A DNA stretch of 64,000 bases. Origin: Marispirochaeta sp. (GTDB lineage: Bacteria > Spirochaetota > Spirochaetia > JC444 > Marispirochaetaceae). Every line of letters starts with the position of its first letter. Position 1 is the stretch's first letter. This document shows positions 39,001-45,000 of the stretch, in pieces. The stretch lies in the NCBI GenBank assembly GCA_963676835.2, contig CAXXFF010000002.1, positions 1,536,001 through 1,600,000 on the forward strand, written 5' to 3'. Position numbers: made by a program.

Positions 39001-42000
39001 TAAGTCTGGCGGCTTTCTATATTTTGCTCGGCCAAAGTGCAAGCTCATGGGTTGTTGGTGTTGAGGGTGATCTGGTAAAGCCTGAGGGATAAAGATCTCC
39101 TACAGGTAAACCACCAGCTCATCCAGGGGCTTTCTGTTTTTTGCCGGCGGTTCCTTGTCCGGATAGCCCACGGGTGTAAAAGCCAGGGGTTCCCAGTCGG
39201 AGCCCAGGCCGGCAAAATCCCTGGCTTTCTGCGGATCAAAAGCGCCTATCCAGCATGTCCCCAGGCCTAATGAGGCTGCTGCGAGTATCATATGGTCCAT
39301 TACTATTGTGGCATCCACATCAGCATAATTTTTACTGTCCATTCTGGACCATGCATCTGAGGGGTTGGCATATACTCCCAGAACATAGGGTGCTGCTGTA
39401 AAGAACGAGCGGGGATAGATCTCTTTCAGGGTTTCCAGATGGTCGGTAGTTCTGATTACCACTACCTTGTAGGGCTGCAGATTACAGGCTGTGGGGGCGA
39501 GCCGGGCGGCTTCAAGGATTGCATCCAGTTTCTCCTGCTCCACAGGCGCATCGGTGTATCTTCGTACGCTGAAACGATTTCTGATTACTTCAAGACAATC
39601 CATAGGAACCTCCATGCGTGTCTCTTATTACACCTTTTCCGCCTGAATATGTCAAAGGGGGAGATTCTGAATGTAGCGGATAACTTCCCTGTCCAGAGGA
39701 AAGAGCGCTTTCTCCGGGCGGGATACAAGCTTTCGCTTTTTAAAATCCTCTTCCGGGATTGCCACGGTAACACCGAAGGGGGTTGGTATTTCCACGATCG
39801 CTCCCTTAACCCGGACATGAGTCCCGTCCAGCCCTAGAGCAGCTCTTCCGGATTCAGATATATCCCTGCGGTTTTGAAGCCGTTTTCTTTTCTCTTTCCA
39901 GCAGACAAGCCGGCAGAACCCGCAGACCGTGTAGTAAAACCAGTCAGGATTGAATACGGCATTCCGGTAGTCTGCAAAGCTGTTGTCCGGGTTTTCCATC
40001 TGGGGGTCCAGTTTCTGCAGAGCTATGCAAAGCGTATCGAGTTCGTTTTTTGTTGCTGGAAGTTTCTTATCCAGCCGGTAGGGACTCCAGTTTGACCATT
40101 TTTCTGATGAAGAGAGTCCTTCATAGCCGGTGCAGCCGATCCAGCAGCAGGTGTTCGGCTGCTTTTCAGCAATGTGTTCAACAAGGCCTGCTATCTGAAC
40201 CTCTTTTCCGCTTTTTGCCGGCACCATTTCTACCGGGCAGACTGCACTGCACATGCGGCAGCCGTCGCAGGGATGTTCTGCATCGGGGATCAGGGCATCC
40301 GGCGTAAGCGGGGCTGTTGTAATGACACTTCCCAATTCCACCAGGGCGCCGTATTTCGGGGTCATGAGGTTCCCGCTCCAGCCCAGGCGTCCGATTCCGG
40401 CAGCCACTGCGGCGTACCGGTGAGAAAACTCCGGCAGGAAATCTGTCATCTCTGTAACATCAGCGGCCCCCGCTTCCGGCCGGTAGTTGTTGTTTATATC
40501 TACGTTGACAGATGAATAGCCTGCATCATGAAGAATCTTTACCAGGGTGTCCCCCAGTGTATAGAGCCGTTTTACCGCTTCCTTGCGGTTTTCACAGTGA
40601 TTATTCCAGGATTCCTTGGTGAGAAAACTGTGAATATGTTCTTTCCTGAGAGGCAGTGCCAGAGCGATGACCGACTTTGCCCCGGGCAGCAGATATTCCG
40701 GATCACCCGAGGGAGGTGCATCTTTCAGGCGTGCGGTGGAAGTGAACCCCGCCAAACAGCCATGTTTCTCCGCGGTGGCCTTCACTAACTCTTCAAGTCC
40801 GCTTATCATGTGTTCATGGTTCTTTAAATAACCATGGATGTCAAGGCGTTGCAGATAAAGTGGGGAGAGAAACAACTGTATGGCATTAGCGGATAAGCTG
40901 AGCATAAAAATTATCAAGGCACCACTGGAGAGCTCAGAGAAGAGTGAGGTTATCCGTGAGCTTGTAGATGTGCTTCTTGAAGCAGGTCTTATAGAAGATG
41001 CCGAAGCTGCTCTTGATGTTGTAATCAAACGGGAAGAATCGGGCAGTACCGGGCTGGGCATGGGGATTGCCGTACCTCATGCGAAAACCGATATGGTTCC
41101 GGAATTCACCCTTGCCCTGGGTGTTGCTCCAGAAGGTATAGATTTTGACTCTCTGGACGGCCAGCCGGCAAAGCTTTTTTTCCTGATTCTTGTTCCCCCC
41201 AATATGCCCGGACCTCACAGTGATGCCCTTATGGAAATTGCCCGGATTTCTATGAACACTTCCCTGCTGAATACCCTCTGTGCTGCCCGGTCGGCAGAAG
41301 AGGTACTGGAGGCTTTTGCAGGTAGTTGATTTTACTGTTTCCGGTTTTTCTGGTTGGTAATCTTTCTTTTCAGGTGTAGTATTAAAAAAGTTAATGGAGT
41401 TAAATATGAAAGAAGTTGAATCCCGTTTGTCCCTATCAGAAATTCCCGGTCTTTCCGCTGTATTGGTTCTGGATGAAGAACCCTATCTGCAGGACTCTTC
41501 TGATTTCCGAAAATCTCTGAAAAATCAGCCTGCGTCCCTTGAAGTAGGGGGCAGTATTATTGCCCGTGGAATAATAAAGAAACACTTCGGTCAGCTTGAT
41601 TTTGTCGTCCAGGAGGTCTTCCGGTGAACAAAAAAGGCATCAACCAGGTCACTGTTCCCCTTGAAGTAAACCTAGGCGGTCAGGAGCTTACCCTTGATCA
41701 GGCTTCTTCCATAAAAGCCGGTTCTATTATTGAACTTGATACCTGTGCCGGCGAACCGGTCGAGGTTCGGCTTGCCGGGGAGGCGGTAGCCCTGGGCGAA
41801 GTGGTTGTGATCGATGAAAGTTTTGGTGTGCGCATAACCCGGCTGCTGACAAAGGGCAGTAGTAATGAAACGGTCTGAGATTATCGGCGCAGCCGGGCCG
41901 GATCGGGATGTCCGTATCAAACGGTACGATTTCCGCCGTCCCGATAAGTTTTCCATGGAGCAGATACGCTCCCTTTCGCTTGTTCATGAACAGGCTGCCC

Positions 42001-45000
42001 GGGATCTTACCCTTCACCTGTCCGCCCGGCTTATGCGGGAGGTTGTTGTAAAACTCGAACTTGTGGATCAGATGACCTATGATGAGTTTCTCCGTCAGTT
42101 TTCCAAAGAGCCGGCCCTCTACTCGATGTACGGGGATACGCGCTCTGTGGTATCTTCGGTGATCCATTTTTCAAACACCCTTACTTTTGCGCTTATTCAC
42201 TACCTCTGCGGCGGAGCCTCCCCTGTTCCTCAATCTGACCGGGATGTTTCCGACATGGAGATGTCTCTTTCGGAAGGTGTCTGTCTGCTTACAGCTTCCA
42301 GTCTGAAACGTGCCTGGAAAATTGTGGATATACCCTGGCCGGGTTTGCGTCAGATAGAGACAAATAAACTCTTTGCATCAATCACTTCCCCGGGAGAAAT
42401 GATTGTATATGTCCGTCTGAGCATTAAATTTGAAGACCTTCAGGAGAACATTGATATAGCCATCCCCTATCTGTTTCTGGAACCCCACCTTCAGAAGTTG
42501 ACTCCGGCCTACCTGTACCGGGATATAGCAGCGGATGCTTTGGGGAAATCTGCGATTCTGGGGAATGTGGTTCAACCCCGTAGTGAGTCTGTAATTGTTC
42601 TTCCCCGTATAAAGCCTGCGGATGTGTATAAACTGAAACCGGGGTCGCGCCTGGGTATTCCATTGCGGGGGAAAGGCAGCCGGCTGGTTCAGGTGCGTAC
42701 TGGTGGGGTGATTGGTGCCGCTTTGCCAACAGTACCTGATCAAACCCTTAAACAGCGGGTTTTAGAAGAATCTCCTCCTCCTGCTTCTCCTGCGATAGAT
42801 TCTCCGGCAAGAGAAACAAGAACAGTACCTGACTCCTTGAAAGAGGCTGAAGCTCTGCCGAAAGAGGCGGCTGAAGAGATCGCCCGGCTGTTGAAGTCCA
42901 GCCTGCCCCAGATGCAGGCCGCGGCTATTTCCCTGCTTTCGCCAGAGTGTGCAGCTGCGGTTCTGGCGCAGTATAACCCCGATACTGCTGCAGGGCTTTT
43001 TTTGCTTCTTTCCGGTATGAAACGGGTGGATCACAATATACACCGTGAGCTTGCGGGCTTCCTTTTGAAGATGCTTTCCCTGCAGGGAGATCCCTCCTGG
43101 ACAAATACGGGTGGAGAGAAGAGGGCAGCGGAGATCCTTCGGCATACGGATGAAAAGATCAAAGCTGCTATTTCCCTGCTCAACAGGCAATAAACTATCT
43201 TGAAAAAGATCTATTTTACCTCTTGGAATGCATGATGGAATTTCCCTTGTACCCTTAAACCGGCAGCGGTGCGGACATGATATGCCGTCCTGAACATAAT
43301 TCAGCCTGGATATTATGCTTCTGGTTCGGATCTCTCGACCTGGAAGTAAATATCTGTTTTCAGCCTTGCCGGAGGGGTAAAGCCCGGATTTGTGCGGAAA
43401 ACCTCAATACTGAGGCCTGTTTTGGTGTATTCCGAGTCCCGGATATATTCTTCCAGCTGCTTATAGCTTTCCTGCATGGTGGCATAGGGACCAAAATGCC
43501 GGGTTGTTGCGTAGATACCTTCAGGCAACACTCCTTTTTTTGCCGCTTCCGATCCTTTTCCCTGGCGGAACACTGGAAAACCGACTTCAACATCCATGGG
43601 CGTCTTTTCTTCTGAGTGGTAGATTACAAAGGGTTTTCCCGCCGGAATTACAAGGTTTCTGCGTGAATATCTGCCCAGTTCCTTAAAAGCATCGGTAAGG
43701 AATTTCGGCAGTTCCTCCAGTGAGCATCTGGTTCGTATGGATATTATTTTCTTTGGTTTCAGCTGTACTATTTCCATTTGTGATTAATCTCCTGGTGATA
43801 ATAGTGTCTACTTCCCGGACTTCAGCCGCCGGCGTTCCTTTTTGCTCATGTAGCGAACCTCCACACCGCCGAAGAAGATAAGTCCGGATATATGGATTTT
43901 AGGTCCGCTGCTGTTGTAGCCTGCGGTGGAGTTTTCAATCCCCCCGAAAATCGGAGTTCCGTTTACCTCGACAGAGGCGTTATCGGGAACGACAATCTCA
44001 ACTCCCCCCATTACGCACAGCAGGTTTATCCGGGTTTCACTGCCTCCCAGAGGGCACTGGGAAAGATTCAGTTCTGTCCCTCCGAAGATGTTGGTCACCT
44101 TCAGGTTTTCAGGAACATTCCATACTCCTTTCCGCTCAGTTCCGCCGAATATGGTGGTCAGGGCGCTCCTTTTCGGTCGGCTTGAAGAATTTGCAGCATG
44201 TTCTTTTCCCGGAAGCGGAATCAGGGTCGATTCAACCGGAACCAGAGCCTGCTTCGAGGTGGCATTGATGGCAATGGAAAGAAGTTCTTCAAACTCCTCC
44301 TCATTCAGTTCGCCATGGGCATAGTTATACTGGAGTCTTTCCACAACCTGTTCACGGTACTGGTTCAGCTCTTCCTGTGCATCCGGCATACCCTTTCTCC
44401 CTGCAAAAAAGTAGACAACATCCGTCAGCTTATACGCTTGGGGCGAACGGGGTCAATGATGAACCTGGCCATGACAGATGGAAAGATTGTTTTTAATGGA
44501 TATGTAATGGTTTAAAAATTATACCTGCATCCGGGGTTTTGTAGTATAATCCCTGCAAACAGATCAACCTGGAGAGTGTAATGAAAGCACTGGTAAAAAC
44601 GGCAGTCGGTGCCGGTCATCTTGAATATTCAGACCTTCCCGATCCTTCCCCAAAACCGGGGGAGGTTAAAATAAAGGTATTTGCTTCCGGCATCTGCGGA
44701 ACGGATATGCATATCTATCATGGAGGCTACCACTACGAGCCGCCGGTAGCCCTTGGTCATGAGTTCAGCGGAAAGATTATTGAACTTGGCGAAGGTGTTA
44801 CAGAGTTTAAAGTGGGCGACCGGGTTTCCGCGGAAGCTCCCACGGCCCTCTGCGGAAAGTGCGAGTATTGCCGCTCCGGAGACTACCAGCTGTGTCTCAA
44901 CCGCCTCGGGGTGGGCTGGGGAACCAACGGCTCCTTTGCAGAGTTTATTGTAGTTGAAGCTGCTTTTGTTCATGCCATACCGGACAGCATCAGCGATGAT

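Follow-up and report, generated by a model that had tools for sequence, protein, structure and literature searches.

A FliM-FliG fusion cassette in Marispirochaeta, apparently a shortened copy of a spirochete gene set that might damp the flagellar motor

The window analysed here is a stretch of 64,000 nucleotides from the genome of Marispirochaeta sp. (G000), in which three overlapping same-strand ORFs were confirmed at 41406-43193 (+). As the preliminary description had proposed, they form a three-gene set outside the flagellar operon that combines a FliM-FliG_M fusion with a FliN-like partner, on which Pfam, NCBIfam and a structure model agree; its report of canonical fliM, fliY and fliG and a second fliG at other loci of this genome also holds. 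The features are as follows.

41354..41382, +: candidate sigma-70-like promoter (8/12 consensus matches, 17-nt spacer), picked by eye, below the promoter-scan threshold and unlisted there
41406..41627, +: gene X, a probable degenerate SPOA (FliN-fold) protein of 73 aa by profile homology
41624..41878, +: gene N, a FliN-like SPOA protein of 84 aa; PF01052 (FliMN_C), 9.2e-20
41865..43193, +: FliM-FliG fusion of 442 aa, a truncated member of a ~600-aa family (Pfam, NCBIfam, structure model)
41925..42500, +: FliM middle domain of the fusion, residues 21-212; Pfam FliM (PF02154) 4.9e-35, Z 21.8 to 4fhr_A
42555..42746, +: degenerate SPOA (FliM C-terminal) of the fusion, residues ~231-294; family HMM 2.2e-06, structure alignment
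42747..42824, +: Pro-rich disordered linker of the fusion, in place of the family's long helix; pLDDT < 50 at 291-318
42840..43187, +: FliG middle domain, GG hinge and two FliG_CN helices of the fusion; Pfam, NCBIfam, structure match

The -10-like stretch of the candidate promoter is resembled in the sister species (G402). For gene X, the start at 41406 is favoured over an in-frame ATG at 41394, which would give 77 aa, because of a GGAG at 41396-41399. Listed in the preliminary description as an unknown, gene X by itself has no Pfam match; 8 of 11 members of its family match PF01052 at E<=1 (best 2.6e-4), PDB SPOA structures are matched at E 0.05-0.7 only, and its profile matches the FliN-like profile (prob 95, E 3.7e-08). 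By this profile comparison it is probably a SPOA protein in degenerate form, and the copy in this genome has a short deletion inside it relative to the family. The X profile gave no match to this genome's single FliM sequence. Gene N passes PF01052 (70.8 bits, cut-off 23.8) and falls below the TIGR02480 cut-off (69.5 vs 84.05); its family profile matches FliN structures at 1.5e-26, and the protein shares 43% identity over 68 residues with the SPOA of this genome's FliY and retains FliN's conserved face. A complex prediction for X with fusion residues 1-300 and two N scored 0.49 (best control 0.01; 0.00 with the fusion replaced), with 88% contact agreement and partner pLDDT >=70. By the tool's counts this mark is weak, being reached by 116/157 solved and 2/215 mismatched cases, of which only 18 solved and both mismatches lie at <=0.60, and the score may possibly stem from likeness to solved SPOA complexes.

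Within the fusion, FliG_M (PF14841) matches residues 337-407 at E 5.8e-08, above its curated cut-off (33.3 bits vs 25), and NCBIfam fliG matches residues 326-435; the FliM equivalog TIGR01397 falls short, with 132 bits for a cut-off of 219.6. The single-chain model (pTM 0.72) aligns with FliM middle domains (Z 21.8, rmsd 1.8, 182 aligned) and with FliG 3hjl (Z 10.2, rmsd 2.3, 94 aligned). Its alignment with Salmonella FliM extends to residue 311, and HrcQb is matched at Z 4.0; the FliN-like C-end that the preliminary description had considered lacking is thus present in degenerate form. This SPOA is cut short here and fuller in the model of another family member, G406 (residues 231-313 vs YscQ-C, Z 5.6), where the family's long helix spans residues 317-360; the family helix HMM matches 107/127 family rows, not this genome's fusion. 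The protein stops before the MFxF hinge and is without the torque domain (FliG_CC), and no FliG_C HMM match was found downstream in six frames at the locus. A frameshifted FliG_C past the stop was considered from a short frame seen by eye and rejected for want of an HMM match, the G402 DNA there being unrelated. In an alignment with canonical FliM, no CheY-binding peptide lies ahead of the FliM middle domain. EHPQ of FliG has become SLPQ and the GGxG loop of FliM has become GGAS. This copy shares only ~25% identity with the rest of the family and with canonical FliG, so that it is doubtful whether it fits a ring whose canonical subunits are nearly invariant.

The fusion is ~55% identical to its G402 ortholog, against 83-99% for other genes, and the longest branches in the family tree belong to this lineage's copies. 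The concern about relaxed selection raised in the preliminary description is mostly dispelled: the frame is open in both orthologs, and identity at codon positions 1+2 exceeds that at position 3 by 0.35 in the FliM part, 0.43 in the SPOA (residues 236-285, 95% CI 0.28-0.57) and 0.30 in the FliG part, with all intervals above zero. A neutral simulation kept the frame open in 1/2000 runs at 0.25 and 0/2000 at 0.5 substitutions per site. For genes X and N, dN/dS against G402 is ~0.24 and ~0.12. Judged by these codon comparisons, the cassette genes of this genome are under purifying selection.

Originally, the module was thought to be lineage-specific, seen only in this genome and one sister species, with FliM+FliG_M as its original form. 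Neither point survived a wider search. The cassette occurs in 29/401 Spirochaetia genomes, G000 counted, the X profile having missed 372/401; the family profile found single-frame fusions in 6/40 relatives and at least 6/400 phylum genomes, and the fusion layout is present in 96 of the best 150 library matches. In full, the cassette comprises four genes: one for an AraC-type regulator, a pair of small FliN-fold (SPOA) genes and one for a ~600-aa fusion ordered FliM(middle)-SPOA-helix-FliG(middle+C). On sequence grounds, the window genes are a divergent, shortened copy of this four-gene spirochete cassette, and the FliM+FliG_M form is a truncation of the widespread FliM-FliG(MC) fusion. The torque domain is absent in G000, G402, G524, G606, G605, L105, L107 and L109, and a single origin of this loss is weakly rejected (p-AU 0.038, 7 of these 8 tested). 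In 126/127 rows, FliG2 is the closer counterpart of the FliG part; family monophyly was not resolved in the FliM-only tree. All 10 carriers tested are flagellated and have one fliF. No conserved neighbour beyond the regulator, and no recurring secretion genes, were found beside cassettes. An upstream PTS IIA gene was rejected as a cassette part, being absent from cassettes elsewhere and having homologs in three congeners in other context; matches on viral contigs were likewise set aside (3 loci, all with separate canonical fliM and fliG), as was a link to a 743-aa MotA-like/FliG_C protein, whose MotA-like part matched only canonical MotA in 40 relatives, never over its full length. Of 222 plasmid records with a match, none spans 80% of the query. 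Several family members are labelled plain 'FliM' in their sources, and the family is therefore hidden in annotations; one match is labelled 'Deltaproteobacteria'; no account of the fusion or cassette was found in the literature searched (supplementary gene tables may name it).

Several canonical features are lost across the family. FliG_N, the part of FliG that folds together with FliF, is detected by HMM at >=40 bits in 0/127 family rows vs 33/39 canonical ones, and the FliM N-terminal CheY-binding peptide, of EIDAL type (PMC6946799), in 2/102 whole proteins and 0/21 testable locus rows vs 45/45 canonical. The torque-helix pattern, defined as R or K where FliG has R281, together with an acidic residue at D288 or D289 (for the role of these residues, see 10.1101/2024.04.30.591856), is found in 6/119 family rows vs 22/22 FliG2 and 16/17 FliG1. 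The MFxFED hinge is retained at 87-97%, and the YDFxRPDKF stretch, by mapping the FliM_N part that would bind the neighbouring FliN dimer, is kept in 122/127 rows. Pfam scans revealed no clutch or brake (EpsE, YcgR) domain. The active-site motif of the CheC/CheX/FliY phosphatases is E-x-x-N; at two candidate positions chosen by eye, it is present in 1/127 and 0/127 family rows. EHPQ occurs in 39/127 rows and GGxG in 62/127, vs 45/45 canonical FliM for the latter. These two are the FliM-FliG contact motifs, GGxG being the FliG-binding loop. Their raw co-variation table is 27/35/11/53, and no signal appears on 7 and 3 independent pairs. The FliM-FliG_M contact supposedly hard-wired by the fusion is plausible from the model, but its contact motifs are eroded both here and family-wide.

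HTH_AraC (PF12833) was detected at <=4.5e-20 in 4/4 family regulators scanned, and as to their ligand, the Atlas points only to an AraC binding domain of cupin type. Cassette genes are carried by 42/44 spirochete-titled regulator loci; four cassettes have no nearby regulator, namely those of G000 and G402 (genome-wide) and of G524 and G606 (within 9-11 kb). An operator-like word lies upstream in 39/57 family loci, as a repeated site that overlaps the -35 and is a putative operator; it fits plain transcriptional activation. In its strict form, the word occurs once, at the cassette, in 3/5 genomes and not at all in 2/5, with reversed words as a control giving 0-5 per genome. No such word is found in 41100-41405 of the window.

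The reading we prefer, tentatively and at somewhat less than even confidence, is that of an inducible C-ring unit, passive in itself, through which the cassette would reduce torque and switching, since a subunit without anchor, CheY site and stator-contact surface would probably damp the motor rather than drive it. Its products would reproduce, in passive form, the middle and bottom tiers of a single C-ring unit: X would pair with the SPOA of the fusion, N would provide a second SPOA dimer and the tethered FliG_M would cap its own FliM_M. This unit could join or cap the normal C ring through the kept FliM-FliM, FliM-FliN and FliG_M-FliG_CN surfaces; wherever such a unit were inserted, stator and CheY-P would meet a gap, and torque and switching would fall, as in an inducible 'neutral gear'. 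G000 and G402 have lost the regulator, its operator, the long helix and a torque domain that was by then idle, which presumably leaves a constitutive minimal version.

The cassette was compared with known systems. The Salmonella C-ring protomer FliG:FliM:FliN3 (10.1101/2024.04.30.591856) shares the FliM_M, SPOA, FliG_M and FliG_CN/CC folds and SPOA partners encoded alongside; the cassette differs in joining FliM and FliG, in this order, within a single chain, in lacking FliG_N, CheY peptide and torque charges, in having an extra degenerate SPOA gene and its own regulator, and in lying outside the flagellar operon. Borrelia FliG1, the second FliG, is likewise an accessory spirochete rotor paralog and is proposed to modulate one motor, but it stands alone, spirochete FliG1 keeps the torque pattern (16/17), and the fusion's FliG part is nearer FliG2. 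The FliN/FliY pair of Campylobacter jejuni (PMC6946799) also includes a diverged second SPOA protein dependent on a partner SPOA, although as a constitutive part of a working ring, whereas the cassette is separate, patchy and equipped with a FliM-FliG fusion. Injectisome SctQ/SpaO sorting platforms (PMC4443714, PMC4832279) likewise have SPOA hetero- and homodimers of C-ring descent that play no part in torque; the cassette keeps FliM_M and FliG, and no secretion genes recur beside it. A regulated cut in motor output is the likely outcome shared with EpsE and YcgR, which in PMC13432727 are unrelated proteins binding FliG or MotA, whereas the cassette consists of the rotor's own duplicated parts, apparently switched transcriptionally.

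Several points weigh against a damping unit in the ring: the sequence cannot tell co-assembly from sequestration, EHPQ and GGxG are eroded without co-variation on independent pairs, identity to canonical FliG is low in this copy, and its SPOA is cut short. The main rival, which we consider unlikely, is a cytoplasmic decoy, an unanchored complex outside the motor that would soak up canonical FliG, FliM, FliY or the FliH-FliI export ATPase, such that flagellar assembly or number falls once the regulator is active. The missing FliG_N anchor would suit it, as would fast divergence, which fits loose binding, and N's conserved FliN face, the FliM-FliN SPOA pair being the FliH dock (PMC4443714). One surface would suffice for a sink, however, yet no lineage has lost SPOA, FliM_M or FliG_M, and the weak complex prediction suggests a tie between X and the fusion.

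Action on the rotor, as the preliminary description supposed, remains most likely, but the active alternative switch it envisaged is disfavoured because CheY peptide, FliF anchor and stator-contact charges are lost. Such a unit, biasing direction or switching, for instance at one pole, rather than cutting torque, is improbable, although FliM_M and the GG hinge are retained, the setting of opposite rotation at the two poles of spirochetes is open and the Borrelia C ring contains an unidentified density (10.1101/2020.05.18.101634). It cannot be a general asymmetry factor, because the X profile missed 372/401 genomes and large host-associated families have no fusion among the matches listed. Marginally less probable still is a self-contained assembly, acting as scaffold or sensor and polymerising with no other partner, that might control the AraC protein beside it or have a task unrelated to the flagellum; the regulator's adjacency in 42/44 loci, the loss of all outward interfaces and the missing further conserved neighbours agree with it, whereas four cassettes have no nearby regulator, the G000 and G402 genes are still constrained, the upstream word fits plain activation and all 10 tested carriers are flagellated. 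Least probable of all is that the family functions while the window copy is a decaying relic. Lost regulator, operator, helix and C-domain, eroded motifs, the longest family branches and the 55% identity point that way; they are countered by the codon-position excess in all three fusion parts, by the near failure of neutral simulation to keep the frame and by recurrence of the same truncation in other lineages.

Under the preferred damping reading, the cassette could, at a probability we place a little lower than that reading itself, represent an undescribed class of motor regulator: an activator-controlled set whose 'blank' rotor units, built from duplicated and fused C-ring parts, exchange into an active C ring and uncouple it from stators and CheY-P; this genome would then hold the smallest core that still works. 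PMC13432727 presents known brakes and clutches as foreign proteins gripping the motor; if true, a regulator assembled from parts of the rotor itself would control the motor in a new way. The family also offers a single-chain FliM-FliG for structural work, and its roughly 100 divergent sequences without stator, CheY and FliF contacts are a natural experiment separating C-ring surfaces for assembly from those for power. The cassette is also a concrete candidate for a device by which environmental spirochetes tune their periplasmic flagella.

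Three overlapping genes, all on the plus strand, make up the window locus:
41406 to 41627, plus strand: gene X, 73 aa, overlapping the next gene and with no credible Pfam match
41624 to 41878, plus strand: gene N, 84 aa, FliN-like, with a Pfam FliMN_C match above cut-off
41865 to 43193, plus strand: FliM-FliG fusion, 442 aa, with Pfam FliM (residues 21-212) and FliG_M (337-407), both above cut-off

Canonical fliM, fliY and fliG are held in the flagellar operon of the same genome (G000), which also contains a second fliG. An AlphaFold model of the fusion, built on a 106-row alignment (pLDDT 85, pTM 0.72), matched FliM_M (Z 21.8) and FliG (Z 10.2) structures, and its residues up to 294 aligned with the FliN-fold (SPOA) domain of FliM. 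Weak PF01052 matches were found in 8 of 11 members of the X family, and the X profile aligned end to end with that of N (E 3.7e-08); judging from these profiles, X is probably a degenerate SPOA domain. In complex prediction, X scored 0.49 with fusion residues 1-300 plus two copies of N (contact agreement 88%, partner pLDDT at least 70), against 0.01 for the best control and 0.00 when the fusion was replaced. Of 157 solved pairs 116 reached the tool's mark, as did 2 of 215 mismatched ones; scores of 0.60 or below comprised only 18 solved pairs plus both mismatches. By these counts the score is weak, and it may stem from resemblance to solved SPOA complexes.

The preliminary description limited the fusion to this genome and one sister species (G402); it belongs instead to a family. 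A single-sequence search gave 34 matches, eight of which (599-642 aa) carry FliM, FliG_M and FliG_C. Among the best 150 matches of a profile search against a 50%-identity library, sorted with sub-profiles derived from the family itself, 96 run from FliM_M through an SPOA or helix to FliG_M and then FliG_C, with no FliG_N (a few of them truncated at an end). FliG_C is missing from 19, in many cases probably because the contig stops short; another 14 join FliM and FliG in other ways, and the last 21 are partial or canonical sequences. With the family profile, single-frame fusions were detected in 6 of 40 relatives and in at least 6 of 400 phylum genomes, the latter a floor, as three candidates were scored per genome and G332 was missed. 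The narrower count arose because the window fusion, 54% identical to its G402 ortholog, shares only 17-29% identity with other members.

Of the other loci inspected at the outset, all 11 that are full or near-full have X, N and the fusion next to an AraC-type gene from a single orthologous group. Scanning named genomes for the regulator alone returned 76 loci, with cassette genes adjoining it at 42 of 44 spirochete-titled loci, both loci titled only 'bacterium' and none of the 30 others; these counts include kin, and are thus not independent, and 8 of the 46 spirochete- or 'bacterium'-titled loci were seeds of the query. Both spirochete exceptions are no more than 1 kb from the edge of their contigs. 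Because the scan used one regulator motif, cassettes may also exist outside spirochetes; a single cluster member, from a 3.4-kb contig, bears the label Deltaproteobacteria. In metagenomes, the cassette occurs at 49 of 80 regulator loci, including 48 of the top 54. The X profile matched 29 of 401 class genomes (G000 counted), with N and the fusion adjoining X in 28 and the remaining locus stopping at a contig edge; four of five congeners gave no match. All 10 carriers tested, of the 29, possess fliF.

Upstream of X, the consensus word cAAGATAGTGcAAG, defined post hoc after inspection of the sequences, occurs in 39 of 57 dereplicated regions (mean 2.07, maximum 6 in 100 shuffles). Sixteen regions hold two copies, spaced by 32 bases in 10, and a TA..T-like -10 lies about 33 bases downstream of the word. 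Its strict form occurs once per genome, at the cassette, in three of five genomes and is absent from two. From general AraC biology, we take the word to be a candidate activator site overlapping the -35. Neither word nor regulator was found in G000 or G402.

The family's FliG part is nearer FliG2 than FliG1, the two canonical spirochete groups, in 126 of 127 rows. A single origin of the fusion was not rejected (p-AU 0.88, 33 rows), and a two-domain tree of 56 rows placed canonical genes on one side of a branch with support 91; the FliM-only tree was unresolved. Eight cassettes stop at or before the MFxF hinge, and a test that kept seven of these together gave a weak rejection (p-AU 0.038), with long branches involved. 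The cassette genes of G000 and G402 have diverged fast, yet under constraint.

EHPQ (FliG) and GGxG (FliM) are the FliM-FliG contact motifs, and E-x-x-N is the phosphatase active-site motif of the CheC/CheX/FliY type. Motifs were counted in 127 rows dereplicated from 143, in Salmonella numbering. EHPQ is found in 39 and GGxG in 62 of the 127; both are eroded in the window copy, which would count against a tight canonical FliM-FliG contact, and no EHPQ-GGxG co-variation was seen on independent pairs. The best conserved family motifs are those of the middle and bottom rings. The CheY peptide occurs in 2 of 102 whole family proteins and in none of the 21 locus rows open to this test (four further locus rows fell outside it). 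The torque-helix pattern is kept in 6 of 119 family rows having the C domain, versus 22 of 22 canonical FliG2 and 16 of 17 FliG1; this loss is selective, because nearby structural positions stay (MFxFED 87-97%; the K264 and R297 positions basic in 95% and 92%). A short hydrophobic-hydrophobic-Gly motif precedes the YDF motif at the family N-terminus (window 41865-41900), near the expected CheY-peptide place, in 64 of 127 family rows versus 0 of 45 canonical FliM. FliG_N, present in 0 of 127 family rows, forms the inner ring together with FliF according to Tan et al. (10.1101/2024.04.30.591856), which our reading of kept and lost positions follows.

Further fusions accompany the family. P0117, P0132, P0161, P0162, P0175, P0143, P0173 and P0182 are other FliM-FliG proteins, several with FliG_N; in the FliM tree some of them are placed apart from the spirochete sequences, which suggests independent fusion events. 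Single chains of 788-1123 aa join FliM, two SPOA and FliG (P0100, P0135, P0137, P0153), and two more proteins combine FliM, a DUF4116 repeat and FliG (P0094, P0154). At L056:1356-3143, minus strand (G429), N is joined in frame to the fusion and FliG_C is separated by a frameshift, real or an assembly error; in G332 (L225), FliG_C likewise occupies a separate frame. A 743-aa protein of G000 (L059:4224-6455, plus strand; G000:C2:1129223-1131454) ends in FliG_C (3.7e-30) with an intact torque helix; the preceding stretch matches G000 MotA (E 1.6e-05), and a second stretch looks similar. It is a possible MotA-loop/FliG_C fusion, with a full-length match in none of 40 relatives; a 781-codon frame (G000:C2, about 1243690-1246032) weakly matches its MotA-like part. 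Within the window, a 4Fe-4S protein with weak Fer4 matches (39652-41061, minus strand) has a listed start overlapping a PTS IIA gene and probably truly starts near 40809, and a 723-aa protein (31931-34102, minus strand) combines, by eye, ferredoxin/hydrogenase-like Cys motifs with a chemoreceptor-type signalling tail.

No description of this FliM-FliG fusion or of the cassette was found in the literature searched, supplements aside, including passages of PMC7225975, PMC4443714, PMC6946799, PMC13432727, PMC12236494, PMC11800159, PMC4832279 and 10.1101/2020.05.18.101634. Several functions may be weighed, the mechanism being one that we infer throughout. That the products act as a cytoplasmic decoy appears rather unlikely; a switch that biases direction is improbable, a self-contained scaffold slightly more so, and local decay of the window copy the most doubtful. 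We tentatively favour a passive unit. The cassette would represent the middle and bottom tiers of one C-ring unit from which all outward interfaces have been removed, and such a unit would join or cap the C ring and thereby damp torque and switching.
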